Assembly: GCA_027622665.1 (NCBI GenBank)
Contig: JAQBYT010000020.1
Span: forward strand, 1-61,634
Reading direction: 5' to 3'
Length of the DNA: 61,634 bases
DNA from: Verrucomicrobiota bacterium
Lineage (GTDB): Bacteria; Verrucomicrobiota; Verrucomicrobiia; Opitutales; Seribacteraceae
Shown: one piece after another, positions 5,973 to 61,634 of the stretch
Numbering within the stretch: the first letter of the stretch is position 1
Layout: every line of letters starts with the position of its first letter
Made by a program: the position numbers and the translations under genes
The notes under the pieces: model-generated
What the model saw: the letters and a program-made list of their open reading frames with translations, nothing else
Database searches by the model: none
What the model was told of the DNA's origin: nothing

Positions 5973-7400
5973 ATGTCGAGATCATTTAAAAAATTACAAT
6001 TCAAAGCCTTGGTTGCTACGGCTGTAATTCTTTCAGGTTGCGGCTCGTTTACCGAAAGTCGAAGCCCGAACCCGGACGAAGGGGTTCCCCTTGCCCCTGA
6101 TAAATTTCTCCACAATGAAGCCCCCTCTAGCGAAGCTATCATTTCCTCGCCGGAAGCATGGTGGCGTATCTTCAACGATCCCACTCTAGACTCCTTGATC
6201 GAGAAACTAGAAAACGCAAATCCGGACATCGAAGCCGCTCTCGCCCGAATGGATCAGAGTTTCGCAGTTCTAGGCATTACTCGTTCCGCGCTGTTTCCAA
6301 CCGTTAAAGGAGAATTGTCCGCCGGTCGCCGCCGCGATTCGCTAAATAACCTTCTCTTTCCTCTATCGACTCCCGAATACGAACGCTATGGAATCGGGGT
6401 CAGCGCATCGTGGGAATGGGATCTATGGGGACGCGTCCGCGGTACAGTCAAGCGAGACCGACTTAGGGCCGAAGCCGAAAAATTTGATTTCCAATACCTA
6501 CTGCTTTCACTGCAGGCAAATCTTGCACGCCAGTATTTCGCCATTAGGTCGACAGAGGCAGAATTGGAAATCCTTAAAGATGCAGTAAGAATCCGTGAAG
6601 AAAATCTAAACTTACAGGAATCTCGCCTAAAGCTTGGAACCGGAGTGGAGATCGACGTAGCCCGGGCAAGAGTCGAGTTCCACAATGCGCTCGCGGTGAA
6701 AGAATCCGCCACAAGAAAGCTCGGGAAACTAAAACATGCAATTGCCGTGCTTATCGGCGTTGCCACCTCCGAATTCAAAGGAGAATTGCCGACGATCGAA
6801 AAGTCGTCACTGGCCACTCCGGTAATCCCCCCGGGAATCCCTTCCTCACTTCTAGACCGTCGAGCCGACCTACGCGCTGCCGATCAAACGCTAAGAGCAG
6901 CAGCAATTCAAATCGGCATTCGCAAATCGGACTTCCTTCCCAAGATCACGCTTAACGGGAGCAGCGGCCTCGCAAGCCTGAAATCCAGTGACCTTTTTTC
7001 TGCCGACAGCCAATTTTTCGATATTGGCCCAAAGATAAACATTCCGATCTTCCAAGCACGAGCACGGCAATCATCGCTTGACCATGCCAAGGCTCAATGG
7101 CAAGAAGCCGTCGCCAACTATAGAAGCACAGTACTGACAGCCGTTCGAGAAGTCGACGACGCTCTGCTTGACCTCCAAAGCCTGCAACGCGAGTTGATGG
7201 CAAGAAACGAAGCGGTAAAAGCCGCCACTCAAACCGCCGAGTCGGCGAAAAACCGTCACGACAGTGGCCTAGCCAGCTACTTTGAATTCATCGATGCAGA
7301 ACGCGAGCGCCTACAAGCAAGACTTTCCGAAAACTCCTTGATAGGGGAAAGACGGGCGGCCGCCGTCAGCTTGGTTCAAGCACTCGGAGGTAGTTGGTAG
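5973..7400 (+). CDS. RND efflux outer-membrane lipoprotein (NodT/OprM/TolC family)
   Basis: Lipobox ILSGC, WWRIFNDPTL, SWEWDLWGR, C-terminal LVQALGGSW. Confidence 0.93.
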   Translation: MSRSFKKLQFKALVATAVILSGCGSFTESRSPNPDEGVPLAPDKFLHNEAPSSEAIISSPEAWWRIFNDPTLDSLIEKLENANPDIEAALARMDQSFAVLGITRSALFPTVKGELSAGRRRDSLNNLLFPLSTPEYERYGIGVSASWEWDLWGRVRGTVKRDRLRAEAEKFDFQYLLLSLQANLARQYFAIRSTEAELEILKDAVRIREENLNLQESRLKLGTGVEIDVARARVEFHNALAVKESATRKLGKLKHAIAVLIGVATSEFKGELPTIEKSSLATPVIPPGIPSSLLDRRADLRAADQTLRAAAIQIGIRKSDFLPKITLNGSSGLASLKSSDLFSADSQFFDIGPKINIPIFQARARQSSLDHAKAQWQEAVANYRSTVLTAVREVDDALLDLQSLQRELMARNEAVKAATQTAESAKNRHDSGLASYFEFIDAERERLQARLSENSLIGERRAAAVSLVQALGGSW

Positions 7401-7653
7401 TTGGGCGCATTTATGGTTAAAACCACAATTAGCCTGTTGATTCACTACAACTTTTTCGCCGAACAAAACCCGAAGGCCTGACACCACTTCCAATTACTCT
7501 CCAGCGAGGAAGTATGGAGCTCCATTTAAGCTTAAAAAGCAACCATTCAAAGAATTCTCATCAATCACAGAAAGAGGTGCCTTTTGCATACAAAGTTGCT
7601 TGCGAGTCCAGAGTCTTTCATTGATTCTAAAACTTCAAAAAGGAAATGTTATT

Positions 7654-7965
7654 ATGTCTGAATTTAGTGAAGTAACAGTGGTTCGAGAGGCGAATGTTTA
7701 TTTTGACGGCAAAGTGACAAGTCGAACCGTCAAATTTGAGGACGGAACAAAAAAGACATTGGGCTTCATGCAAGCGGGTGAATATTCATTTGATACCGGT
7801 GTAGCCGAAGTGATGGAAATAATAGGCGGAGAAATGGAAGTGAAACTTCCGGCATCCGACTCGTGGCAAAACTTCAAAACCGGCGAACAGTTTGAAGTTC
7901 CAGAGAACTCGAAGTTTGATCTGATGGTCAAAGAGTTCGCTGACTATTGTTGCTCATATCTTTAA
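7654..7965 (+). CDS. ppnP: pyrimidine/purine nucleoside phosphorylase (DUF1255)
   Basis: [12 protein letters not shown]...KTLGFM..GEYSFDT...E.MEI...DYCCSY matches the PpnP/YaiE family. Confidence 0.88.
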
Positions 7966-8050
7966 AAGCACTCATCTTCAAAATTCACCGTATTCGAAGG
8001 ACCATCGCTCGATGGGAAACCCTTGTTTTGCTAATAAGAACGAAGCGAAA

Positions 8051-9811
8051 ATGAAAAAGCACTTTTCGCAAATAAAAATCCTGCATACCCTCTTTATCGG
8101 TTTATTAACTTGGGGCCTGTTCGGCGACTTGACGGCAGCTAAAAAGCCGAATGTCTTGCTTATCGTTTGTGACGACTTGAACGATTACGTCGAGACGCTA
8201 GGAGGACATCCGCAAGTAAAGACACCGAACATCAAAAAACTTATAGATAGCGGGGTTTCCTTCACCCAAGCGCATTGTAATATTCCCATCTGCAATCCTT
8301 CGCGGGCCAGCTTTGCCACCGGAATTTACCCCCATACCTCTCAAGTGTTCGGGTTCGAGGATTGGGACAAGAACGAGATCCTCAAGAACTCGCGCACCAT
8401 GATGGCTCATTTCTCGGCCAACGGCTACCACACTCTCGGCACTGGAAAAATCATGCACAATCGAGACCGTCAGGAATGGAGCGAGTACGGACACCCTTCC
8501 GATTACGGTCCTTTCCTCTTCGATGGAAAGGACAAGATTCCACACCTTGGAGTCCCCAGCCCGTTCAGGGACGATTTCGGAATTATCGACGGTACCTTTG
8601 GTCCACTCGAAAAAGTCTCCCACAAAAAGTCACCCGCTACGGGAAAACCTTATTCTTGGGTAACCGGGGGGTGGAAGGCCCAACGCGAGCTCAAGTACGA
8701 GTCGGAGGAAAAACGCGACTCGACCGGGGACGAACTCAACGCTCAATGGGCGGTCAAACGGCTGAAGGAACTGGCTGCAGCAAAGAAACGCAAACCCTTC
8801 TTCATGGGCGTGGGCTTCGTTCGTCCGCACACGCCCTTGATCGTCCCTCAAAAATACTTCGACCGCTTTCCCCTAGACTCGATCGAGTTGCCCCTAATCA
8901 AGGAGGGCGACATCGACGACACTTTCAAGCTCACCGTTACATCCAAAGAAGACGATCGAAGCGGAAACCGAGGAACCAAGATGTACGACAGCTTGGTCGC
9001 CTCCTACAAGGGCGACCGGGTCCTTGCCCTAAAGAAATTCATCCAAGCCTACCTCGCCAGCGTTGCCTCGGTGGACGACTTGATCGGTGAAATCCTCGAC
9101 GTCGTGGACGGTTCCTCACTCAATAAGAATACCATAATCGTGTTCACCAGCGACCACGGCTGGGGAATGGGGGAAAAGGACTATTTGTACAAAAACTCCC
9201 TTTGGCAGGAAAGTACCCGCATACCTTTGGTATTACGGGCTCCCGGACTCTCCAAGGTCGGGGAAACCTGTGACCGCCCCGTCTCTCTCGTCGACCTTTA
9301 CCCCACCCTACTGGATCTTTGCGATCTCCCGTCCAACACAATGAAAAACGACAAGGGACGCCCCCTCGACGGGTTCTCCATCAAGCCCTTGCTCAAGAAC
9401 CCCACCATGGGAAAATGGAATGGCCCGGACTCCGCCCTTACCTCTCTTTACAAATGGGCCCAGTATTATGATCCGGCCAAGCAAAACTATTCCTTGCGCT
9501 CAAGCGAATGGCGCTACGTCCGCTATGAAAACGGTAAGGAGGAACTTTATGCCGTAACGAAGGATCCCTACGAATGGGATAATCTCGCGCTTGATCCAAA
9601 CCACGAGAAAACGCTGAAAAAGTATCGAGCCAAACTACTCGCCCGCATTCCCCAAAGCATTCCCGAAAAACCAAAGAGCAACGAACAATGGAAAAACGAT
9701 TACTTCAAGAAGAACCCCAAGGCGGATACGAACAAGGACGGGGATTTGTCTTGGCCCGAACTGAACGCTCACAAGAAATTAATGAATGCCCCGAAGGACG
9801 CCGAATATTAG
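8051..9811 (+). CDS. secreted sulfatase (iduronate/choline sulfatase-like) with C-terminal EF-hand-like repeat
   Basis: KKPNVLLIVCDDL, formylglycine motif CNPSRAS, GKIMH, RPHTP, FTSDHG; DTNKDGDLSWPE EF-hand-like loop. Confidence 0.92.
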   Translation: MKKHFSQIKILHTLFIGLLTWGLFGDLTAAKKPNVLLIVCDDLNDYVETLGGHPQVKTPNIKKLIDSGVSFTQAHCNIPICNPSRASFATGIYPHTSQVFGFEDWDKNEILKNSRTMMAHFSANGYHTLGTGKIMHNRDRQEWSEYGHPSDYGPFLFDGKDKIPHLGVPSPFRDDFGIIDGTFGPLEKVSHKKSPATGKPYSWVTGGWKAQRELKYESEEKRDSTGDELNAQWAVKRLKELAAAKKRKPFFMGVGFVRPHTPLIVPQKYFDRFPLDSIELPLIKEGDIDDTFKLTVTSKEDDRSGNRGTKMYDSLVASYKGDRVLALKKFIQAYLASVASVDDLIGEILDVVDGSSLNKNTIIVFTSDHGWGMGEKDYLYKNSLWQESTRIPLVLRAPGLSKVGETCDRPVSLVDLYPTLLDLCDLPSNTMKNDKGRPLDGFSIKPLLKNPTMGKWNGPDSALTSLYKWAQYYDPAKQNYSLRSSEWRYVRYENGKEELYAVTKDPYEWDNLALDPNHEKTLKKYRAKLLARIPQSIPEKPKSNEQWKNDYFKKNPKADTNKDGDLSWPELNAHKKLMNAPKDAEY

Positions 9812-10028
9812 AAGAAGCACTATTTCAAGAAAAACCCCAAGGCCGATGCCAACAAGGACGGTAAGCTTTCCTGGTCGGAATTTCACGAACACAAGAAAAG
9901 CAAGCCTCGGCAATAGAAAACATTGATTCAGTCGGAAGATTTTGAACTCCGAAAACAATTAAGGGCAAAGCCTAATGTTAAGGTTTGCGGGAGATGCAAG
10001 AGTTGCCATTCGTTTAAAGAAAACTGAA

Positions 10029-49983: not shown

Positions 49984-50328
49984 TGGAAAAACAAACGGGA
50001 GAGTTACATTTTCCGGCCGATCATCATCGACGGTTCCCACTACATCCATCTGAGAAAACCGCGTATAGCTTGCCAGGATATGAAGAGCAGGAACACGAAG
50101 TGGATCAGCAGCGAATCCTTCGAAAAATCACATGTCCATGGTTTCCAACGGACAGGAGAATCTCGCCCTCGATGAGGACGGTCTCCCTTACCTGATCGAA
50201 GTAAACCCGGAAAACTAGTGATCAGGGAGAATCGAACCATTTCCGAGTCTCCCTCCTGGGACCAATTGGCCGTTGCAGACAACCAATTGTTCGTGCCCTA
50301 ACTCGAGACCTTCGTCTGTTACGAATGG
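49984..50328 (+). pseudogene. degenerate remnant homologous to the 3' third of the 47990-49237 propeller gene
   Basis: Translates as WKNKRESYIFRPIIIDG.HY.HLRK.R..C.DMK...TKWIS..SF / MS.VSNG..NLALDEDG..YLIE / W..LA....LFV.*LE...CYEW, collinear with 48890-49234, with frameshifts and a stop. Confidence 0.85.
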
Positions 50329-50395
50329 AAATCCGAAGAGGCTTGGCAGGCATTCCCCCCTTGACACACCTGGACTTTCGGAGTATCGAGTAGCC

Positions 50396-51766
50396 ATGAC
50401 CTCACCAAAACTCCTCTGTCTCTTTTTCTCATGGAAAGGGGAACTGGGTCGATCGGTCTATGCCTTTACGGGCATCGCCCTTTTCCTGGTCAAGTGGAAC
50501 CTCGACAAGCTCATTTCTTTTCTCGTCTTCGATTCCTATCCCTCCCCTTTTTCCTACTTGCTACCCGTAACGTACTTCCCAACGGAAAACGAGCTTTCCA
50601 CAGTGCTCCTCATGCTGGCTCTGGCCCTCCCCTTCATCTATGTTGGGATCGTCCTCACGGTGAAGCGGCTCCGGTCCATACAGTGGCCCATCTACACATG
50701 CTTCCTCTTCTTCGTTCCCTTTGTGAACCTCCTGTTTTTCTTCCTGCTCTCCATCCTGCCTAAGGTCGGGGCCTCAAACCGTGACCAAGAAAGTAAGGGA
50801 AAAGCAAAGGGCTGGCTCGACTGGGCCATCCCGAAAGGACAAGTGGCCTGCGCCGCTCTCTCCGCCGGCCTTTCCGCGGTTCTGGGCACCCTTCTTGTTT
50901 CCCTCAGCCTAACGGCAGAAATTACCCAAAACTACGGATGGGGGGTTTTCGTCGGCTTGCCCTTCGTCATGGGACTGGTAGCCGCCGTAACCTACGGCCA
51001 CCATGCCCGGCGAAAAGCCAGTCAATGTCAAGTCGTCGCCTGCCTGTCCCTTGCCTTTTCCTTCGTCTTTCTTCTCCTTCTGGCGATCGAGGGGATCCTT
51101 TGCCTTGCCATGGCGGCACCCATCGCCTTGCCCTTAGCGTGTTTGGGCGGATGGGTCGGTTACATGATTCAAAACCGATCAAGCTTCAACCCATCTCTGG
51201 CCCTTTTCCTGGCCACCTTTCTGCTAATGGGCTTTGAAAAAAAGGCCCTTCCCGAGGCTCCCCTTTTCTCCGTTCGTTCGGAGGTCTTCGTCAACGCCTC
51301 CCCTGAGAAAGTCTGGAACAACGTGGTCACCTTTTCCGAGCTTCCGTCGTCGGACGACTGGCTCTTCGACTTGGGAATTGCCTGCCCGACCTGTGCCACG
51401 ATTGAGGGAACGGGTGTGGGAGCCATTCGACACTGCAACTTCACCACCGGAGCGTTCGTCGAACCGATCACGGTCTGGGACGAGCCCAACGTCCTCGCCT
51501 TCGACGTTACCGCCCAACCTCCTCCGATGAAGGAAATCTCACCCTACGACATCCATCCGCCCCATTTGGACGGTCATCTGGAAAGCAAGCGGGGCGAGTT
51601 TCGGCTGGAAAGAATGGAAGATGGAAAAACCCGCCTCATCGGCACAACTTGGTACAAACATCACATGTGGCCGGCCAGCTACTGGAAGCTTTGGTCGGAC
51701 TTTCTAATCGGTCGGATCCACCGGCGCGTGCTCAAGCACGTCAAGAAACTGTCGGAGACGGACTAG
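50396..51766 (+). CDS. DUF805 membrane domain fused to SRPBCC domain
   Basis: G.LGR..Y, VKRLR.I N-terminal DUF805-like TMs; EG..C..MAAP; C-terminal SRPBCC (GVGAIRHC.F.TG.FVEPIT.W). Confidence 0.8.
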   Translation: MTSPKLLCLFFSWKGELGRSVYAFTGIALFLVKWNLDKLISFLVFDSYPSPFSYLLPVTYFPTENELSTVLLMLALALPFIYVGIVLTVKRLRSIQWPIYTCFLFFVPFVNLLFFFLLSILPKVGASNRDQESKGKAKGWLDWAIPKGQVACAALSAGLSAVLGTLLVSLSLTAEITQNYGWGVFVGLPFVMGLVAAVTYGHHARRKASQCQVVACLSLAFSFVFLLLLAIEGILCLAMAAPIALPLACLGGWVGYMIQNRSSFNPSLALFLATFLLMGFEKKALPEAPLFSVRSEVFVNASPEKVWNNVVTFSELPSSDDWLFDLGIACPTCATIEGTGVGAIRHCNFTTGAFVEPITVWDEPNVLAFDVTAQPPPMKEISPYDIHPPHLDGHLESKRGEFRLERMEDGKTRLIGTTWYKHHMWPASYWKLWSDFLIGRIHRRVLKHVKKLSETD

Positions 51767-52122
51767 GCTTCCTCCGTTTTCGGGGAGTAGGGTTTCTCTT
51801 CCCCGAGGAAGAAGAGTTTGGGGTCACCCTTGCTGCGGAGTAGTGCGATCACAGCGTAGAGCCCGCTGACAACGTTTCCGCCCAACAGGATTGCAACCGA
51901 CCAGCCCACAATGATCCCCGGGCAACTTTCCCGGTAGCAGACCCAACCGATGAAGAGGAAGAAACCGACGTAAACGTCGTAGAGCGAGACGATTCCCCAA
52001 GGGTTGTCCATCAACTCGGCACCGTCCTTCCAAAAATCGCCCACAATAAATCCATAGGTCAAGGCTCCGGCCATGACCAAGGTCAGGGCGACTAGGTAAG
52101 CGAGAGCAAACTTTCTGCCCAT
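51763..52122 (-). CDS. DUF1475 family membrane protein
   Basis: NPWGIVSLYDVYVGFFLF..WV.YRE. Confidence 0.8.
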   Translation of the reverse strand: MGRKFALAYLVALTLVMAGALTYGFIVGDFWKDGAELMDNPWGIVSLYDVYVGFFLFIGWVCYRESCPGIIVGWSVAILLGGNVVSGLYAVIALLRSKGDPKLFFLGEEKPYSPKTEEA

Positions 52123-52132
52123 GGCAGTTAGC

Positions 52133-53416
52133 TTACGCGGTGGCGACAGCGAGGGCTTGCTCGATGTCGGCAATGATGTCTGCGACGTGCTCCAAACCTA
52201 CCGAAAGCCGAACTAGTTCGGGTGTAATGCCGCCCGCCGCTTGTTGTTCCTCGTTCATCTGGGAGTGCGTGGTCGTGGCGGGATGAATCGCCAAGCTTTT
52301 GGCATCCCCGACATTGGCCAAGTGCGAGAAAAGTTTGAGGTTATCGATAAACTTAGAACCTGCTTCCGCACCACCCTTGATTCCGAAAACGACCATGGAA
52401 CCACCCTTACCTTCCAGATATTGCTGGTTAAGGGCATACATGGGATCGCTCTCCAAACCGGGAAAGCGAACCCATTCCACGGATTCGTGCTCCTTCAAAT
52501 GCTTGGCGACTGCAAGCGAATTCTCGCAATGCCTATCCATGCGTAAGTGTAGGGTTTCAATGCCTTGCAAGAACTGCCAGGAATTCTCCGGTGAAATACA
52601 CGCTCCCAGATTTCGGAGAGGAACGGTACGCATTCTCAATATGTATGACAGCGGAGCCAAGGGTTCGGGCAAATCATGTCCCCAACGCAAACCGTGGTAA
52701 CTGTTATCAGGTTGGTCAAACAGCGGGAAATTTCCATTGGCCCAGTTGAATCTGCCTGAATCGACCACTACGCCCCCTATGCCATTACCGTGGCCACCCA
52801 ACCACTTGGTAAGCGAATGGACCACGACATCGGCTCCATGCTCTATGGGACGAGTTAGGTAAGGTGTCGAAAACGTGCTGTCCACGATCAAAGGAATCCC
52901 ATGAGAGGAGGCAATTTCCCCAATTGCCTTGAGGTCTGCGACATCCAGCCCGGGATTGCTCACGCTTTCGCAAAAGAGAGCTTTTGTCTTTTCCGTTATG
53001 GCGGCTGCGAAATTTTGTGGATCGTTGGGATCGACGAACTTCACGGTAATTCCTAGTTTCGGAAGGATGTCGTTGAACTGAGTGTAAGTACCGCCGTAAA
53101 GGTTGTTGGCGGAGACGATCTCATCACCTGCCTCGGCGAGATTAATGATCGAATAAAAGACCGCACTCGTGCCGGAGGCTACACCTAGTCCGGCCGCACC
53201 ACCTTCCAAACCTGCTACCCGCTGCTCTAGAACGTCGGTTGTCGGGTTCATCAACCGCGTGTAAATATTTCCTAGTTCGCGCAGGCCGAAAAGGTTGGCC
53301 GCGTGCTCGGTGTTGTTGAACACGAAGGAACTCGTCTTATAGACGGGCACAGCGCGTTAAAGCGTTGTAGGTTCGGGAGAGTAGCCGAGGTGAAGGCATT
53401 TGGTCTCGATTTTCAT
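52133..53416 (-). CDS. metY: O-acetylhomoserine aminocarboxypropyltransferase (sulfhydrylase), in-frame TAA at codon 20
   Basis: GNIYTRLMNPT, LYGGT, HSLTKWLGGHG (PLP Lys), HLANVGDAKSL.IHPA.TTH. The N-terminus MKIETKCLHLGYSPEPTTL is separated from RAVPVY by TAA at 53357-53359. Confidence 0.88.
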
Positions 53417-53583
53417 GGGTTGTATCGGGATGGGATTAGCGAAAATGGAAAAGTTTAGGAGGTTGGATAAAATTCGATATTATTCAACCTTTTATCCCTT
53501 AATAGAAAAAGGGTAGGAAATCGAAGAACAACATTTTTCCTCTATGCGAAAATAAGATCAAGAACAATGGTAAGAGTCCATTC

Positions 53584-54567
53584 TTATGGAGCCATCACAA
53601 TACCTATTTCCGCAGCGGTTGCATTCGGTTTTCCATTGATCTCCGAGAGAACCCTGACCAGCAGGTAGCGACCGGAAACCGGCTTGGGACAGTTAGCGAC
53701 TTGAGCTGATTTCAAACCCAGAAAAGTTTTTTTTGCCGCAGGCTTACCCTCAAAGGAGTCAGACCGTTCGCTCAGGTAAAACTCCGTCTCCGAGAATTGT
53801 CCCACGACCTCTGGGTTTTGTCGGGCAAGGTAGCGGAATCCGGAGATACGTCTTGATCTCCCAAGGTCGAGAATCAACTCATGCGGTGGAGAGGCAACCG
53901 AATCGGCGAAACTCGATTGCCAAATCGTTTGAGAATCGCCGTCGATCAAGTTTTTAGCATGTCCGTCAAATCGGGCTTCCTCACTACTGAAACGGACTAC
54001 CTTCATCTCGTGCACAGGCACAAGGTCGGAGGATTCGATACGATAGTTCATCGTAACCCGTCTCTTGATGAGCTCAGATTCCAACTCGCCCAACGTTACC
54101 TTACCGGGGGAGATCCATACGGACAGTCGCCCTTTTCCAAAATCGGCTGTCGTCCGGGCAACGCCTTCGAGCTTGTTCACCGAAAGATAAGCAGCATAGG
54201 CACAGGCCTTACAATCAAGACCGGCGATGGGAATGACAATTTTATTCCAATCTTGAAACGGAGTAGAGACCCGCGGCAGGAATTCGAACATCCCTCGGGT
54301 CGCGCCTCTAAGTTGACTGCTCATCGACTGAAGCTGTTGCTTTGAATCATCTCTCGCAAATCGCTTCCCGAAGCGAACGGTTAACTCACCGCGACCATAA
54401 TCTACTTTGACGAGTTCAATGTCCTCGAGTTCGGAAATCGCACGTCGAAGGCGATCGGTTTGATCGGGATGAAAAAGACCAGTCACGCGATAGCTCGCTA
54501 GGTTATTTTCGGCATGCAAAGTAAAAAAACCGAGTAAAAGGATCGAGAGGATTATTCCTTTTTTCAT
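53584..54567 (-). CDS. secreted protein with two HMA-like domains and an F5/8 type C (discoidin) domain
   Basis: Signal peptide; IAGLDCKAC HMA motif; NLIDGD..TIWQS, LILDLG, F.YLARQ, RY, AAEI. Confidence 0.75.
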   Translation of the reverse strand: MKKGIILSILLLGFFTLHAENNLASYRVTGLFHPDQTDRLRRAISELEDIELVKVDYGRGELTVRFGKRFARDDSKQQLQSMSSQLRGATRGMFEFLPRVSTPFQDWNKIVIPIAGLDCKACAYAAYLSVNKLEGVARTTADFGKGRLSVWISPGKVTLGELESELIKRRVTMNYRIESSDLVPVHEMKVVRFSSEEARFDGHAKNLIDGDSQTIWQSSFADSVASPPHELILDLGRSRRISGFRYLARQNPEVVGQFSETEFYLSERSDSFEGKPAAKKTFLGLKSAQVANCPKPVSGRYLLVRVLSEINGKPNATAAEIGIVMAP

Positions 54568-54596
54568 TGAGGTCACAAGAGTTCGTTATTCCAAAA

Positions 54597-57197
54597 TCAT
54601 TTGCCGACAAATATCTCGCTTGCGACCAATTCGTGGATGAGAGAACGCAGTCCTCCTCCCTTGGATTTGACTCTATTGAGAATACCTTCGTGTACTTTCC
54701 GGTCGGCAAACATCGGAGCCCGACCGATCGCATAGGTCTGCAACTGCCTAAGCAAGTTAAGAGTAAGCCCATCTCCATCCTTTGAAGCCAGAAACTGGAA
54801 ATGATTGATTCCTGCAAATTCTCGGCCATCCGGCAAAACACCAGAAGCATCGACAACCGGACCTAGCAGAAAGGATAGAGAGATGAAAGGATCGATTGTC
54901 CCACGCTCAGGCTTGTCTCCCTCCCCCACGGTACGGTAGCGATTCCGTTGGCGACCAATGACGTCAAAGGATTCCAGAGCAAAGCCGGGAGGATCCATCT
55001 TGGCGTGGCAACCTGCGCATGCCGCATGGTTGCGGTGCAGGTCCAGCTGCTCTCGGATAGTGGTCGCTCCACTGATGTCCGGCTCGATAGCAGGCACGTT
55101 AGCCGGTGGAGGCGGGATCGTATTGCCCAGCAACCGATCCATTACGAACGCCCCTCTTGGCACGGGTGAGGTGGTCGTCCCGTTTGCAGTTATCTTGAGG
55201 ATCGAGGCTTGGGTAAGAAAAGGTCCCCGGGGATGATCGGGAGGCAACGAGACTCTTCTGACCTGGGGACCACTCACTCCCTCGATTTCATAGTGAACCG
55301 CCAACTTCTCGTTGATCATGGCGAAATCCGAGCGAACCAAATGCCCAGCCCCCAAATCCTCGTCGAGCATTTCGCGAAAAAAGGAACGCGTCTCAGACAC
55401 CATAGAGTCCTGCAGGTAAGGATTGAACTCCGGATACAGTTTCCGGTCCGGGTCGTTTTTAGCGATTTCCTTGAGACGAAGCCACTGGTCTAGAAAATCG
55501 TTCACGAATCGATCGGATTTCGGATCTTTCAGCATGCGTTCGACCTGCACTTTCAGCACCTCTGGATCATCAAGTTTTCCAGACGCCGCCAGCTCCTTGT
55601 CGGGAAGGGAATTCCAAAGAAAATAAGAAAGTCGATTGGCCCGCTGCACCAGATCCAACTCGCCCTTCTCCTCAAGATGGAAAAGAAAATCGGGTGAGCA
55701 CAGAGCCGCCCGGTAAACCCACCGCATGGCGAACTCGAACGATTCGTTGGCATCCAGTCTCTCTCTGACTCCCTCAAGGTAAAGGGCACGTTCTTCCTCA
55801 GAGACCTTTCGCCGGAAGGCTCGGGGCAAAAAGTCCGCAAGCAACCGCCCGGCGTCCTCGATTGGTCTTTCGGAAAAAACGGTCCACAGTCCCGGCTCCG
55901 TTTGCCTCCTGTTCTGCCCCGCCCCCAGTTGACGAATCTTCTTTCTCAAAGGCGGACGGACGATCGGGTTCTCATCCTTGAGGAACTCTCGGATCGGCAA
56001 GTTGCCGAAAAGTCTCTTGTGCGAAAGCGGAGGCCATTCCTCGTGAAAAGGCCCCTCCACCTCCAGCCAATCGACCGTGATGCCCGGACCCGTAAAGGCC
56101 ATCGCCCTGCCTTTTCGGTTGTAATTGGCTGTCGGGGCAAGGGAGGCGGCATTGAAACCGATCAGCTCATTGTGGTTAAGCCAAACCTTCAATTCATGCT
56201 GCTTGGGGGCAAGCGAGGGAGCGTCATAGTATCCGAGCACGTAACTGGGGTGGCCCCCTCCCCTCCCGTCGCCCGTCAACCGGACGACCGACAAGCGGGC
56301 CGCTTCGGTGCCTCGGGCGGGAAGAACTTTACCCTTGTCCCACTGAAAAGCCCACAGGGAGGTTCTCACTCGGTAGATTCCAGGATAGACCGTTACGTGC
56401 TCCATGAAATAAGGACTGACGGACTCGTCCTCGTGTCGGAACAAGCCGACCGAGCTTCCCGATTGAAACGATCCGTAAGCCTCGTGAGCCCCTTGGCTCA
56501 TATGGTTAAAATGTCCGGCGGGCGGAAAATCCGGATCGGGTTTCATGTCCTTTAGCAACACACCGTCGCCATTCATGATGATATGGGCAACGAACCCCCC
56601 CCGGTTGGCCAGGGAAATCCTTCGTTTTGCCACAACGGGTGCGACCGGTCGAGTGGCAATGGCCAAGTCGAGGGCATGATCCGCTGCCTCCATGTACTTG
56701 GCCAAGTTTACGTGAGAGAGGTCGAGGGCTGCGCTTTGCTTGTCGAATCCATGGACTGATCCATCCTCCGGAAGAAGTTCCTTCAAGGCGATCCCCGGCA
56801 TATCGAACAAATCGCGTAACGAGTATTCGTATTCCGTCCTCGTCAATCTCCGCAGGCGAGTACGAGCCAAGCCTCGGTATTTCTCGGCCTCCGACTCGAG
56901 AATGATTTCCGACAGGGATCCGAGCGCTTTTTTCTTTTCCGCTCCGCTCGGTCGATCCCGCTTAGGAGGCGGCATCTCTCCTCTCTCGATCCGGTCATAG
57001 GCGTACAGCCACTTGGCGAAAGTTTCCTCCGCCCCCAGGTCACGGGAAAGGGAGAGCATGTCCAAGCCTCCCTTCTTCGATTCCCCATCATGGCAATCAT
57101 AGCAATGCTTCTCCAAAAAATCGTCAGGCCAATGCTCCCTCGCCAACAAGGGAAGGCCCATGCCAAGGGCCAGCAGGTAAAGCAAGGGGACTCTCAT
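54597..57197 (-). CDS. DUF1592/1588/1587/1585/1595 cytochrome c-type protein (PVC)
   Basis: CYDCH, LRRLTRTEY, RAFRR, SPDFLF, RLSYFLW, TSPVPRG, CAGCHAKMDPPGFALE. Confidence 0.9.
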   Translation of the reverse strand: MRVPLLYLLALGMGLPLLAREHWPDDFLEKHCYDCHDGESKKGGLDMLSLSRDLGAEETFAKWLYAYDRIERGEMPPPKRDRPSGAEKKKALGSLSEIILESEAEKYRGLARTRLRRLTRTEYEYSLRDLFDMPGIALKELLPEDGSVHGFDKQSAALDLSHVNLAKYMEAADHALDLAIATRPVAPVVAKRRISLANRGGFVAHIIMNGDGVLLKDMKPDPDFPPAGHFNHMSQGAHEAYGSFQSGSSVGLFRHEDESVSPYFMEHVTVYPGIYRVRTSLWAFQWDKGKVLPARGTEAARLSVVRLTGDGRGGGHPSYVLGYYDAPSLAPKQHELKVWLNHNELIGFNAASLAPTANYNRKGRAMAFTGPGITVDWLEVEGPFHEEWPPLSHKRLFGNLPIREFLKDENPIVRPPLRKKIRQLGAGQNRRQTEPGLWTVFSERPIEDAGRLLADFLPRAFRRKVSEEERALYLEGVRERLDANESFEFAMRWVYRAALCSPDFLFHLEEKGELDLVQRANRLSYFLWNSLPDKELAASGKLDDPEVLKVQVERMLKDPKSDRFVNDFLDQWLRLKEIAKNDPDRKLYPEFNPYLQDSMVSETRSFFREMLDEDLGAGHLVRSDFAMINEKLAVHYEIEGVSGPQVRRVSLPPDHPRGPFLTQASILKITANGTTTSPVPRGAFVMDRLLGNTIPPPPANVPAIEPDISGATTIREQLDLHRNHAACAGCHAKMDPPGFALESFDVIGRQRNRYRTVGEGDKPERGTIDPFISLSFLLGPVVDASGVLPDGREFAGINHFQFLASKDGDGLTLNLLRQLQTYAIGRAPMFADRKVHEGILNRVKSKGGGLRSLIHELVASEIFVGK

Positions 57198-57201
57198 GGT
57201 C

Positions 57202-58071
57202 TCAGGCCAAATCCAGCCCGCGCATCAACCCCGTCGAGGTCGAGAACTTATCCTTGCGGATGCCCATGCGATGCAGCATGGAGAGGTACAGGTTGGTCAG
57301 GGGATAATTGTTCTTATCATCGAAGACGAGATGCTGCCCATGCTTAAATCCTCCGCCGGCCAGCAATACAGGTAAATTGTAGTTGGAGTGGGAATTCGCG
57401 CTACCCATGCAGGTTCCGTAAAGTACCATGGTGCGATCAAGCAGGTTGTCTTCCTTCTCGCCGCTTTCCGACAAGGCGGACAGGAAGCCGTTCAAGGCCT
57501 CGAATTGGCCCGTCTCATGGTTCTTCAACTCAGCCAAGGTTTCCGGCCGGTTTCCGTGGTGCGTGATGTTATGGATGACGGTCGTATCGATGAACAGGGA
57601 AACAACCCGGGTCGAATCGGTCTCTAAGGCCAGACGAATCATATCGAACATGGTTCGCGAACGCGAGACGAAGGCCAGTCGGTCCTTGTTCTCATCCGGA
57701 ATCTTCGTATCCACCTTGGGCTTGGGTTCGTATTCCCATTGCTCGGAGGCATGCATTCTCTTTTCCAGTTCCCTCACAGAAGTGAAATACTGGTCCATCC
57801 GGTCGCGGTCCTCACTCGAGAGGCTGCGGTTTAACTTCTTCGCCCGCTCGCTGAGAAAATCCATCGTGCTCCGACCTTGCCTCAACGCTTCGACTTTGGC
57901 CTCGATCTCGCTCGGTTTGCCTTGAAGGAAAAGATTCTCGTAGAGCTTCCGGGGGCTCTGGTCCGAGGGAACCGCCGCCCCGCTCCTGGTATAACTCAAG
58001 GTCGCGTTCTCATTGGTTACCGCCAAGCTCAGGGAGGGAAAGCGAGTGGCGGAACCGATTTCCTCGGCCGC
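57202..58071 (-). CDS. DUF1552 protein, 5'-truncated at the junction
   Basis: Frame reads AAEEIGSATRFPSLSL... from 58071; D.TRV, HNITHHG, LLDRTMVLYG, ANSH...LPVLLAGG. The N-terminal part of the family is missing. Confidence 0.85.
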   Translation of the reverse strand, partial: AAEEIGSATRFPSLSLAVTNENATLSYTRSGAAVPSDQSPRKLYENLFLQGKPSEIEAKVEALRQGRSTMDFLSERAKKLNRSLSSEDRDRMDQYFTSVRELEKRMHASEQWEYEPKPKVDTKIPDENKDRLAFVSRSRTMFDMIRLALETDSTRVVSLFIDTTVIHNITHHGNRPETLAELKNHETGQFEALNGFLSALSESGEKEDNLLDRTMVLYGTCMGSANSHSNYNLPVLLAGGGFKHGQHLVFDDKNNYPLTNLYLSMLHRMGIRKDKFSTSTGLMRGLDLA

Positions 58072-58634
58072 TCAAATAAATATTTGTTAGGTGAATATTC
58101 CTTATAGTACTCTCTAAGTAATAATAGAATGTTTTCTGATAGTGGTAGATTTCTGTCTTTATAATTTTTAGCCCCCCTTACGGTTATACTCATCCGTTCA
58201 GAATCAATATCTATAATCTCCAAGCCTACGACTTCACTAATACGCAACCCAGCAGAATACATTAATGAAATAATGCATTTGTGTTTTATATTTGACAAAC
58301 CATTTATCAACCTCTTAACTTCATTTTTAGAAAGGACTGAAGGTAATTTCTTTTCTCTTCTGCTTGGGATTAGGTATTGAATATTTATAGTTCTATTTAA
58401 AACTTCTTTATAATATAGTTTTAGGGACATTACCATTTGTTTCTGATATGAAAAAGAAATCTTTTTATGATGAATAAGATTGTATACGTATTCATACAAA
58501 TCTTGTTCTGAAACCTTATTTAATGGCTTTTTAAAATAACCTTTTGCTAAACTCACAAAAGATGAATATGTTTTTATGGTGTTAGGACTATAGCGTTTAA
58601 CCTCAAGTATCTTAACGAAATCAGCAACTGACAT
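58071..58634 (-). CDS. tyrosine recombinase (integron-integrase-like, no IntI insertion), 3'-truncated
   Basis: N-terminal SAM-like domain (RYSPNTIKTY), KKLPSVLS..EV, box I YSAGLRISE, AKNYKDR, YLFE. Sequence after YLFE is the unrelated GC-rich segment, so HxxR and the catalytic Tyr are absent. Confidence 0.88.
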
Positions 58635-58667: not shown

Positions 58668-58675
58668 CAAACATA
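58668..58675 (-). promoter_or_regulatory. Bacteroidota-type -7 promoter element for the integrase
   Basis: TATGTTTG on the minus strand matches TAnnTTTG, 33 nt upstream of the integrase ATG. Confidence 0.5.
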
Positions 58676-58739
58676 ACCAAATAAAATCAATTGGTTATCT
58701 TTTGAATTTTGTATTATTGCACATAACCAATTGTTAGCT
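58671..58739 (+). other. attI-like primary recombination site
   Basis: TAAC-CAATT-GTTA core ending in GTTAGCT (58733-58739), with further ATAACCAA copies at 58673 (direct) and 58691-58698 (inverted). Lies between the divergent integrase and the first cassette. Confidence 0.7.
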
Positions 58740-58776
58740 ACAAGAATAAGAAACCATTAACCTAAATAAAAATGAT

Positions 58777-59268
58777 ATGATTTTTCAAAAAGTAAGAGTG
58801 CTTTTTATCTCAATTATTCTATTACAAGCCTCATTAGCCTATTCGCAAGAATCATATGAAGATATTTTAGGAAGAACCTATGTGCCTGCCAATCAAGAAT
58901 TGTATGAAACGATTGTATCATTGGATAAAAAATTATTTGACGCTTACAATTCCTGTGATATGGATACACAAGCCGCTCTTTATTCGGAAGATTTAGAGTT
59001 TTTTCATGACGAAGGAGGACTATCTACCTCACAAGAAAAACTTTTAATAGCCCTTAAAAATAATATTTGCGAAAAGGTTACAAGAACCTTGATTGAGGGT
59101 AGTATAGAGGTTTACCCTATAAAAGATTACGGAGCTGTTGAAATAGGGTATCATGCCTTTAATGACAAAAAAACACCAGAAAATATATCTAAAGGAAGTA
59201 GATTTATTATGATTTGGAAAAAAACGGATGAAAATTGGACTGTGACAAGAGTCATTAGTCTTCATTAA
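58777..59268 (+). CDS. cassette 1: secreted NTF2-like/DUF4440 protein
   Basis: Signal peptide; LD..LFDAYN.CD, DLEFFHDEGGL, IEVYPI..YGAVEIG.H.F, W.VTRVISLH. Confidence 0.85.
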   Translation: MIFQKVRVLFISIILLQASLAYSQESYEDILGRTYVPANQELYETIVSLDKKLFDAYNSCDMDTQAALYSEDLEFFHDEGGLSTSQEKLLIALKNNICEKVTRTLIEGSIEVYPIKDYGAVEIGYHAFNDKKTPENISKGSRFIMIWKKTDENWTVTRVISLH

Positions 59269-59284
59269 AATCCGAAACTCCAGC

Positions 59285-59413
59285 AGCTAACACGGTGTAT
59301 AAAACATAGCTATTATAGGCTTTCCGAAATGTTTTAGATATTTACAAAGTACGCCAAATCCGAAAAGTTAGTGTCTTTTTATACGCTACGTTTCATACAC
59401 AAGACCGTTACCT
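59285..59413 (+). repeat. attC-like palindromic cassette site 1 (129 bp)
   Basis: AGCTAAC (59285-91) ... GTGTATAAAACATAGC (59295-310) pairs with GCTACGTTTCATACAC (59385-400) ... GTTACCT (59407-13). Confidence 0.85.
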
Positions 59414-59456
59414 GCAAGCGTAACGAACGACAAAAAAATGAAAAACTATACATATA

Positions 59457-60803
59457 ATGACAAAAACAATTTTCAAAACTATTGCTTTAATGGGGCTATT
59501 AAATTCAACAACATTAAAAGCACAAATCAATCCGACAAATAATTTCATAGGGGTAGATGTCAGCACATTTCCTCAAAACGCAAGTTTTGATTATGACTCT
59601 TGCTTTGCTCTTGGAGCAAATTTAGGAATGGGTAGCATGGGACTTTTTCAGAATTGGACAGCCATTGAAACGGCACCTAATACTTTTAATCTAACTATCT
59701 TCGATATAGCAGATTATTATTACCCTTTGCACAATATGCCTATTGATTTAACACTTACCCCAATACATACTAACAATTTAGAAGTGCCGTCAGACCTGAC
59801 AACAACAGCATTCAATAATCCTATTTTAATAAATCGTTTCAAAACACTTTTGGACAGTGTTAAAGCTCACATACCAAATGTTACACTTTCTTCTTTGGTA
59901 ATTGGTTCGGAACACGATGTGTATATGGGGACAAATGCAACGTTATGGTCGCAATACACAACATTTTATAATTCTGTTTCTACTTATGCAAAAACACTTT
60001 GGCCAGGTTTAAAAGTAGCGACTGAATTAACATTTGACGGAATCACTACCTATAACTCATATGCTCAAACATTGAATACAAACAGCGATTACATTGGCGT
60101 ATCCTACTATCCCATAAATTCTAATTTTACTGTCAAGCCTGTTTCAACAATCCCAATTGACTTTGGCACACTTGTAGCTTTATATCCTCTCAAACCATTA
60201 TACTTTTATCAATATGGTTATCCTTCAAGTCCAACTTGTAACAGTTCTGAAACGCAACAAGCACAGTTTATTACACAAACATTTACAACTTGGGACACTT
60301 ATGCTTCTAATGTCAAAAAGATTGATTTTACTTGGCTTCACGATTTAGATACTGCGGCAGTAAATTTTTATGGAACATACTATGGTATTACCGATACCAT
60401 ATTTTTGGAATTTTTACATACATTGGGACTTCGAACTTGGAATGGAAATGGTGTGGATAAGCAAGCATTTGTTGAGTTAGAATGTCAGGCAAAACAAAGA
60501 GGATACAACAATTTAAACATCAATTGCACAACAGGAATTACAGACCAAAGTAACAACGACAATAATCTATTTATTGTATTTCCAAATCCTGTTCAAAACA
60601 AATTGAATATTGAAATGTCATTTGACATGATAAATGCGGAAATTAAAATTTATAATCAGTTAGGACAAATCGAAAAAACCATTTCAAATATTAGTAGCAG
60701 AAACATAAGCATAGAAACATTTGACTCTTCAAACGGTGTATATTTTATAGTATTGCAAAATGGGGACAGACAGGTAAACGGAAAATTTATTATAAACAAA
60801 TGA
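59457..60803 (+). CDS. cassette 2: secreted glycoside-hydrolase-like protein with T9SS type A sorting domain
   Basis: Signal peptide ending KAQ; IGSE, DYIGVSYYP, QYGYPS barrel-like motifs; C-terminal VFPNPV..KLNI...IYNQLGQ...NGVYFI......KFII. Confidence 0.85.
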   Translation: MTKTIFKTIALMGLLNSTTLKAQINPTNNFIGVDVSTFPQNASFDYDSCFALGANLGMGSMGLFQNWTAIETAPNTFNLTIFDIADYYYPLHNMPIDLTLTPIHTNNLEVPSDLTTTAFNNPILINRFKTLLDSVKAHIPNVTLSSLVIGSEHDVYMGTNATLWSQYTTFYNSVSTYAKTLWPGLKVATELTFDGITTYNSYAQTLNTNSDYIGVSYYPINSNFTVKPVSTIPIDFGTLVALYPLKPLYFYQYGYPSSPTCNSSETQQAQFITQTFTTWDTYASNVKKIDFTWLHDLDTAAVNFYGTYYGITDTIFLEFLHTLGLRTWNGNGVDKQAFVELECQAKQRGYNNLNINCTTGITDQSNNDNNLFIVFPNPVQNKLNIEMSFDMINAEIKIYNQLGQIEKTISNISSRNISIETFDSSNGVYFIVLQNGDRQVNGKFIINK

Positions 60804-60822
60804 CGGCAGACAGAGCGCCAGC

Positions 60823-61000
60823 AGGTAACATGGGTTTTGTGAATATGCTGGTTTTGTGCAAGCTGCAACTTTATTTTTTCAGCGGTATAAATTTATATTT
60901 TAAAAGTTGCAATAAAGTTCAGTACATTTAATTCACGTTTTCGGTTAAGACAGTTTAGTGCTATTAATTCCAGCACATCACAAAGCCCCAAACGTTATGC
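60823..61000 (+). repeat. attC-like palindromic cassette site 2 (178 bp)
   Basis: AGGTAAC (60823-29) ... GGGTTTTGTGAATATGCTGG (60832-51) pairs with CCAGCACATCACAAAGCCC (60970-88) ... GTTATGC (60994-61000). Confidence 0.85.
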
Positions 61001-61027
61001 CTCATTGTGAAAGGACAAACCAGAAAT

Positions 61028-61634
61028 ATGAAAACATCTCTGACAATTATATTACTCTTAGTTTTTCTGACGAACAACGCCATAGCTCAAGTTGGTTTGA
61101 CTAAGAAGGAAAACCCATTAAATGACGACTCGTATCTTCACCCCATAGACGCAATTACACCCTACACCCTAAAAAAAGGAGAATGGATTTATGCACAATC
61201 TATTCAAACACTACCGTTCCCCAGTTGGGCATTTTATGGTATAACTGACAGATTGACTGCACAGATAGATTTGTTACCGTGGCTTTACGGTGCATTTTCT
61301 GACTTAAAAAAACCAATCCCAAGTTTGAACTTAAGGTATAGATTTAATGAACAACAAGGGATTATACCAACAATTGGCATTGAAGCAATGTTTGTGCATT
61401 TTTGGGACACACTCCAAAGATTTGAAACCCCCACTCTGACTGTTTGGGAAAACGGCTCTTACTTTCATCTGAAACCATCATTTGGATATAATTTCAAAGA
61501 CAAATATTACATTAATCTATCAGCTGGACTAGATTATATTGGAGAACTTATTTTGCAAAACAACGATTCGTTGAATTTTCAATCCGAAACATTTCAAAAA
61601 AGTTGGAATCCAAATTTTTCAATAGGGTTCGATT
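61028..61634 (+). CDS. cassette 3: secreted/outer-membrane protein, runs off window end
   Basis: Not in the ORF track. ATG 61028 gives MKTSLTIIILLVFLTNNAIAQVGL...TPYTLKKGEW...FYGITDRLT..., open to the end, with a signal peptide and beta-strand-like pattern. Confidence 0.8.
   Translation, partial: MKTSLTIILLLVFLTNNAIAQVGLTKKENPLNDDSYLHPIDAITPYTLKKGEWIYAQSIQTLPFPSWAFYGITDRLTAQIDLLPWLYGAFSDLKKPIPSLNLRYRFNEQQGIIPTIGIEAMFVHFWDTLQRFETPTLTVWENGSYFHLKPSFGYNFKDKYYINLSAGLDYIGELILQNNDSLNFQSETFQKSWNPNFSIGFD

Follow-up and report, generated by a model that had tools for sequence, protein, structure and literature searches.

The integrons served by IntI1 and VchIntIA (PDB 2a3v) place a recombinase gene beside an attI site and a row of cassettes, with a GTT/AAC boundary and a 5-nt attI spacer. 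In their attC sites, R and L stems enclose an unpaired loop whose right side is the longer; the bottom strand is more stable, an A follows AAC, a C precedes GTT and position 7 is a T. All of these features recur in the locus studied here or its relatives. The I2 helix of IntI is held to have enabled single-strand cassette recombination, direct proof being stated to be missing because its deletion is reported to abolish the activity of IntI1 (PMC7790495). Integron surveys require a match to an I2 profile (10.1101/2022.02.06.479319); almost no integrons are reported in Bacteroidetes in the data given by PMC9024848, and none in those given for Elizabethkingia anophelis by PMC11523902. Since the surveys demand I2 and Bacteroidetes appear nearly devoid of integrons, a large cassette pool may have gone uncounted. 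An 'Integron-like' tyrosine recombinase subgroup has been named, and the parts of the paper that deal with it give no cassette arrays or sites for its insertion-less members (PMC8138268). In the papers searched, mostly open-access main texts, we found no description of arrays with such short enzymes.

The window (the whole stretch analysed, 61,634 nt) contains two attC-like sites that are quite likely the cassette-end sites of an integron-like array, with exchange at GTT probably carried out by the adjacent recombinase, which lacks I2, and probably on a folded bottom strand. We regard the array as a variant of the integron and infer how it works. Because it lacks I2, conserved extrahelical bases and the GTTRRRY consensus, we did not file it as a classical integron, despite its integron-like working. 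A natural I2-less family whose arrays visibly exchange cassettes makes the question of I2 testable with wild-type parts.

The contig junction and the recombinase

The window is an entire contig. Its GC content is 0.54 at positions 50000-58071 and 0.33 from 58072 to the end. Genes of the DUF1552/DUF1592 type lie to the left of this break; to its right are a tyrosine recombinase gene on the minus strand and three genes on the plus strand, one of them with a type IX secretion sorting domain. GC content and public contigs together indicate a probable chimeric junction at 58071..58072, where PVC-type DNA meets Bacteroidota DNA. Among the public runs compared, the join was present in the possible source run only, the left-hand DNA had other continuations in runs X4 and X10, and the recombinase gene ran past the break normally in X1, X2 and X4 (X1-X3 come from one study; X4, X9 and X10 come from three others). 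Because the join is confined to one run and both flanks continue differently in others, it is probably an artefact and the array DNA Bacteroidota; the array thus probably belongs to a marine Bacteroidota bacterium, from whose genome a fragment was wrongly fused to PVC-type DNA. We rejected a true transfer into that PVC-type genome, since two genes are broken mid-frame at the join and no att site lies there; the confinement of the join to the possible source run also speaks against it. Twenty relatives matched the left-hand DNA only, bar one 35-bp match at E 0.001. The window sites themselves are not assembly products, because each of them, up to its GTT, lies within a single contig in two samples. 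The 3.6 kb of Bacteroidota DNA sit at a contig end in a genome rated 0.13% contaminated, and the last 14 apparent residues of the window recombinase ORF are contributed by the foreign DNA.

The recombinase gene (58072..58634, minus strand; PF00589, PF13495) encodes a short Xer/IntI-like tyrosine recombinase, the 3' third of which is missing at the junction. Over the gene and the 120 bp after it, DNA identity to locus L001, from a Flavobacteriales MAG, is 98.7%; in L001 the enzyme is complete (273 aa) and lies upstream of a gene that, from its translation, we take to be uvrC. The L001 protein aligned with VchIntIA in two pieces with about 40 residues skipped, residues ~207-247 of VchIntIA having no counterpart. 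The spacing from the catalytic R to HxxR was 89-90 in 91 of 92 short enzymes (the remaining one was not measured; 8 of the 80 first loci had been left out for coverage), as against 130-141 in 16 of 17 IntI rows and 88-96 in seven XerC/D rows. The family enzyme is thus about 41 residues shorter than those of classical integrons, and the IntI-specific insertion that marks integron recombinases is absent.

In profile searches, the IntI model TIGR02249 gave 194 bits (cut-off 265), while the XerA-like model NF040815 gave the best HMM match, 241.4 bits, above its cut-off of 220; as NF040815 is a naming model, this score is no proof of a function in dimer resolution. The XerC and XerD models gave 190-192 bits against cut-offs of 330-335, placing the enzyme outside that clade, and the best PDB matches were archaeal Xer proteins. 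In core length, best HMM match and PDB matches the family therefore resembles XerA, XerC and XerD. It differs from XerC/XerD in forming a separate clade and in lying beside cassette arrays. A quick-mode tree of 58 rows, chosen from about 120, with long-branch outgroups and no archaeal XerA, separated three groups (SH-aLRT 92 for the short enzymes, 96 for IntI and 99 for XerC/D), with an unresolved base; given the mode, the choice of rows, the long branches and the lack of archaeal XerA, a sister relation to IntI is not demonstrable from it. The short enzymes lay on a branch separate from the XerC/D-like genes of their own hosts. A C-terminal SP-x-D motif, only a lead, was present in 36/92 short enzymes, 16/18 IntI and 0/7 XerC/D.

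The attI-like site and exchange at GTT

The attI-like site (58716..58744, plus strand) consists of two 12-bp half-sites that face each other across a 5-nt spacer, with its GTT at 58733-58735. Two extra copies of the left half-site, one direct (58671-58680) and one inverted (58691-58698), are seen upstream in the sequence and may be accessory binding sites over the recombinase promoter. Elsewhere, many attI candidates show a short palindrome just upstream rather than extra half-site copies. A promoter scan gave results close to chance (9 found, 5.7 expected).

Three plus-strand cassettes follow. The first (58734..59407, 674 bp) carries a DUF4440 gene (58777-59268; PF14534). The second (59408..60994, 1587 bp) encodes a 448-aa protein (59457-60803) with a type IX secretion sorting domain (PF18962, TIGR04183), apart from which it has no solved relative. 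The third (60995..61634) is incomplete at the contig end, and its ORF, which starts at 61007, had no match in Pfam and NCBIfam searches. Array and enzyme gene are divergent in the window and in L001, whereas most family arrays lie downstream of a co-oriented enzyme gene.

Public contigs showed that the DNA is rearranged at the GTT triplets. Behind the attI GTT, divergent sequences were present in five of six runs (X1, X2, X4, X9, X10), branching at 58733-58738. A contig of run X3 joined 58732 to 59407, so that exactly cassette 1 (674 bp) was absent; its short side measured 93 nt. In run X2, cassette 2 stood in two places, after an attI variant and after a different attC; cassette 3 likewise followed a different attC, and site 2 led into another cassette. 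Several alternative sequences stood before or behind both attC GTTs. In these joints the base 5' of GTT goes with the upstream partner and the base 3' of it with the cassette, leaving only the GTT triplet for the crossover. The branching contigs are alternative arrangements in populations and do not by themselves point to one enzyme, the adjacent recombinase being the likely one. Similarly, L001 has another first cassette from the same GTT on. That cassette (7727-9880) is unusual in being about 2.2 kb long with at least four genes.

Cassette ends are also self-complementary: the first 10 nt of cassette 2 are complementary to its own far end, and the match of cassette starts to their own far end was 5.5 versus 2.4 of 6 nt in the family (n=85 cassettes), and 5.0 versus 2.4 in held-out cassettes (n=21). 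The locus thus has, as integrons do, an attI site beside the recombinase with cassette entry at GTT, and core sites complementary to their own inverse core sites.

The Xer-like profile match, the Xer-like length of the catalytic core and the near-palindromic attI would all fit double-stranded recombination of the Xer type through the right end of the sites only, the hairpin being there for something else. Two-step duplex exchange by tyrosine recombinases needs a spacer sequence common to both partners. The right-end spacers are 5 to 8 nt long and have no sequence in common with the attI spacer. Furthermore, the left arm keeps to a single register and the stem contains each of the four pair types, so that we consider such a mode of exchange improbable and retain that of an integron-like array.

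The attC-like sites and their relatives

Site 1 (59285..59413, minus strand) is 129 bp long, and its bottom strand has G·T pairs at positions 10 and 15 of the stem as well as at position 11 of the outer half-site. Site 2 (60823..61000, minus strand) is 178 bp long, has one extra base in its left arm (A13 or A14), and shows the wobble at 16, i.e. 15 plus the extra base, and again at outer position 11. The right arm exceeds the left by 3 nt in both. The preliminary description, that of two sites differing in length and sharing an architecture, proved nearly exact when followed base by base: the common prefix CCAGCAG(C/G)TAAC, the spacers (ACG vs AAGACC; AT vs CAAAC), the top-strand A/C mismatches of the site 1 stem (positions 10 and 15 after AAC), the additional left-arm base of site 2 and the R' boxes GTTACCT and GTTATGC are all as it gave them. 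It omitted a top-strand T/G pair at position 6 of site 2, and its interpretation held in part only, having overlooked the outer wobble, the common half-site, the absence of I2 and the probable chimerism.

Using DNA parameters on whole sites, the minimum free energies were -13.3 (bottom) and -8.9 kcal/mol (top) for site 1 and -19.7 (bottom) and -20.2 kcal/mol (top) for site 2. The weak bias of site 2 is due to its T/G pair at position 6, which disfavours the bottom strand. In both sites the TAAC/GTTA (R) box was paired in the bottom-strand fold only. Because the whole-site folding z-scores of the bottom strand were modest (-1.2 for site 1 and -2.2 for site 2), energy alone is insufficient and significance rests on the paired-arm detector described below. 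The prefix CCAGCAG is no constant of the family, since it was found in 4 of 189 sites, two of them those of the window; one of its Cs belongs to the outer C·A wobble present at both, and the rest mostly mirrors two cassette starts that are alike by chance (10/12 nt). A plasmid search with site 1 gave no match. A terminator-like stem at 59405-59426 on the minus strand, which covers the R' box of site 1 and the first bases of cassette 2, may be due to chance.

The first sample took in 80 loci encoding related recombinases, together with 3 plasmid loci and the tip of the window. An initial loose stem search had returned 6986 matches, mostly chance, and was replaced. The first detector was neutral to strand and register and already gave registers of +1 to +4; the second used three motif bases learned from the first sample, allowed one bulge and weighted A·C and G·T equally, both under a normal pair. 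It gave 150 matches in 84 sequences and none in one shuffled copy, corresponding to 149 non-overlapping sites in 49 sequences. In a held-out set of 20 regions, picked from 66 matches for score and length of contig, 40 sites were detected in 15 regions, the other five having none. No match was found in eight XerC/XerD-like regions (156 kb), so that sites lay beside the short enzyme in 15/20 regions and beside XerC/D-like genes in 0/8 (p = 0.0004). The window's own 4.5-Mb genome gave nine isolated matches besides the two window sites, none of them with the family A at position 8. The rates of own-arm and other-arm pairing (0.89 and 0.36) were not counted as evidence because they are circular, the sites having been selected for pairing.

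Recombinase matches at E <= 1e-40 were present in 51 of 151 genomes of Bacteroidota, the phylum of L001. Short-family recombinases were also seen in records labelled Cloacimonas (L004), Gracilibacteria (L020) and Brevinematales (L078), with family sites in the first two. Site lengths clustered near 60, 110, 126, 188 and 225 bp (L001-L080, L101-L120); a step of about 63 bp is suggested by the series 60/126/188.

If a canonical IntI encoded elsewhere moved the cassettes, the short recombinase would be a bystander. IntI1 does weakly recombine the attC site of the veb1 cassette (PMC3518468), and one complete integron has been reported in Salinibacter (PMC9024848). However, none of the four array-bearing genomes searched contained an IntI above the cut-off, and in 15 of the 20 held-out regions the array has the short enzyme as its neighbour. 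Moreover, 25 short loci of canonical IntI contained no family-type site with the wobble at 15, the five matches there being weak (scores 18-19). We therefore regard such a bystander role as very improbable. It is more improbable still that the hairpins are RNA elements (terminators or stabilisers) or ordinary intergenic repeats. Their placement 3' of genes on the coding strand (123/189 sites) would suit this, but the A·C mismatches fall on the transcript strand, an Rfam scan gave no significant family (best E 0.75), and the DNA rearrangement joints at GTT largely refute it.

The preliminary description had taken the +3 excess of the right arm for part of a code, to be given up if further sites did not conserve it. 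The excess is not fixed, and a +3 code is thereby refuted: in the 189 sites it was 0 in 2, +1 in 55, +2 in 50, +3 in 47, +4 in 34 and +5 in 1. It differs within single arrays, was +4, +3 and +4 in L001 with nearly the same enzyme, and partly follows lineage (+1 goes with ~225-bp sites in loci labelled Cyclobacteriaceae). What is conserved is its direction, the right arm being longer in 187/189 sites; as the spacers of three classical attC sites from a class 1 integron, measured by eye, are 5 and 6 nt in the same sense, the longer right spacer is not new. The broader claims fared better. Structure rather than sequence is conserved, and the bottom strand is favoured, with the lower energy in 124/149 sites and in 35/40 held-out sites; 24 of the 149 fold better on the top strand and the median bias of the family is -2.3 kcal/mol. 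Like classical attC sites, those of the window have R''/R' and L''/L' stems, an unpaired spacer and a favoured bottom strand, the last weakly so in site 2.

The code does differ from that of classical attC, as had been surmised. The RYYYAAC/GTTRRRY consensus is lacking, GTTRRRY occurring in 12/149 sites and RYYYAAC in 19/149. The departure from GTTRRRY already noticed at the window sites is accounted for by the bases after GTT, which are those of the next cassette and complementary to that cassette's own far end. Family sites reach 240 bp, 72/149 being longer than 150 bp, whereas classical sites measure 57-141 bp (PMC5027507), and their loop (4 vs 5-8 nt) is also different. They have no conserved extrahelical G16/T23; the two or three extrahelical L'' bases of classical sites (G16, T23/24) were not found. 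Bulges were absent from 94/149 sites, lay on the left arm in 32 and on the right in 23, at scattered positions and mostly as T; 34 of the 40 held-out sites were bulge-free. Because the detector allows one bulge, classical sites with two bulges are under-counted by it (1/3 found in L100).

The family has fixed G·T wobbles on both half-sites. Counted from AAC, the left arm has conserved A1, T7 and A8 and then an A·C mismatch (G·T on the bottom strand) at position 15, which was present in 183/189 sites (144/149, and 39/40 held-out) and in 53/56 of the non-redundant set. A second A·C at position 10 was present in 75/149 and 11/40. All four pair types occur along the stem, in which top-strand A·C or C·A (263) far outnumber G·T (25), and the left arm keeps a fixed register. 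Cassette starts have GTTR-N5-(A/C)-A-T in common, with A11 in 179/187. Laid along the left arm, the profile of this half-site fits only when its G (the first base) is placed at position 5, which makes the wobble at 15 fall on position 11 of the half-site. The same position of the outer R half-site, which lies outside the detector, was a top-strand C·A in 129 of 187 array hairpins, G·T in none and a normal pair in 5, the outer wobble being missing from 58; in 92 modelled excised circles it was C·A in 67 and never G·T. Among attI candidates, 29/33 had the 5-nt spacer with T3-A4, and only 15/33 had A11 in the left half-site.

Proposed mechanism and the veb1 cassette

The scheme proposed here starts from the layout, the GTT boundaries, the complementarity of cassette ends, the fixed A·C mismatches and the absence of I2, all of them direct observations. 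The bottom strand would fold so that R''/R' and L''/L' each form a duplex half-site, the two being separated by an unpaired loop with 4 nt in its left and 5-8 nt in its right side. A single strand exchange would then occur at the G|TT boundary, and the junction would be resolved by replication, as in integrons. Taken over from integron biochemistry, which supplies the folding, the single exchange and the replicative resolution (PMC5027507), these steps appear very likely to apply to the family.

For the choice of strand, we lean towards a read-out in which each subunit would read the 12-bp half-site GTTR-N5-(A/C)-A-T, including the T opposite A11. That T is present in the duplex attI; in the hairpin it would be offered by the bottom strand only, as G·T, in both half-sites, the top strand presenting C·A at position 11. 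The wobbles would in this way take over strand selection from the extrahelical bases and the I2 pocket. An A-T pair is almost never found at the wobble position, perhaps because it would serve both strands. The extrahelical T of classical sites (23 or 24), counted by eye with inner bulges discounted, lies as far from AAC as the wobble T does, at 15 helical steps (PMC5027507).

Alternatively, within the same system, the wobbles would only stabilise the bottom-strand fold, and the strand would be set by the uneven loop or by stability, with no reading of the T. In classical attC sites an excess of bottom-strand G·T is a general skew as well, with G:T pairs averaging 1.24 on the bottom and 0.39 on the top strand and a bias of 2.1 kcal/mol (PMC5027507); the median bias of the family is similar and its right arm is nearly always longer. 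Against this, the mismatch is pinned to one position, which is the same half-site position on both arms, and the more stable A-T pair is almost never used there. We thus think that mere stabilisation is rather unlikely to be the whole explanation, and keep the read-out of the T.

In IntI, I2 prevents a second exchange (PMC7790495). In the I2-less family, this second, lethal exchange might be blocked by the unevenness of the loop together with the degeneracy of the L half-site at its first two bases, which we suggest tentatively. It counts against the whole scheme that I2 is held to be necessary for cassette capture (PMC7790495). We also counted against it that the enzyme copy of the window is truncated, that site 2 is nearly devoid of an energetic strand bias, that 24/149 sites are top-favoured, 58/187 lack the outer wobble and A11 is present in 15/33 attI only, that bulges occur on either arm in 55/149 sites, and that 5/20 held-out regions have no site.

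A plasmid of E. coli (LC745731.1) carries the veb1 attC site (133 bp; positions 2448-2580 of the locus) in a cassette row of the class 1 type, and this site fits the code of the family. It passed the detector with a score of 33, an excess of +3, A·C at 10 and 15 and one left bulge; it also has the family half-site at its start, and the outer wobble. It is reported to be functional and a poor substrate of IntI1; its L boxes diverge, its spacer is larger and a single base is extrahelical, and the parts of that paper concerned with it treat it as an atypical classical attC with no link to a second enzyme family (PMC3518468). In another plasmid locus (CP006657.1, positions 7001-7824 of the locus), a truncated short-family recombinase, 48% identical, lies directly upstream of blaVEB-3, and between the two are an attI-like spacer and a family half-site. 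From these sequences we infer, on a single example, that the veb1 cassette originates from the pool of the short family. The fit of its site suggests that a Bacteroidota cassette pool has already given class 1 integrons a clinical resistance gene. Going further, it is conceivable, though we put it forward tentatively, that integrons have a second widespread chemistry. An I2-less family, with a relative in about one third of Bacteroidota genomes, would recombine single-stranded DNA hairpins and tell the strands apart by two symmetric G·T wobbles rather than by extrahelical bases. As a living model, this family would illustrate the passage from Xer to IntI, and it would have been the first home of the veb1 beta-lactamase cassette, later borrowed by class 1 integrons.

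A recombinase match of the same size as that upstream of blaVEB-3 was present on four more plasmids of Klebsiella and Aeromonas. On a Flagellimonas plasmid (L083, 8047-10819), a short-family recombinase is flanked by erm(F) and a gene of the dihydrofolate reductase family and, at its opposite end, by a resolvase; two family sites were detected in this locus. IS110 transposases and group II introns target classical attC sites. On a Chryseobacterium plasmid (L082, 10001-19892), an array with three family sites is split by an IS110 transposase and a group II intron reverse transcriptase.
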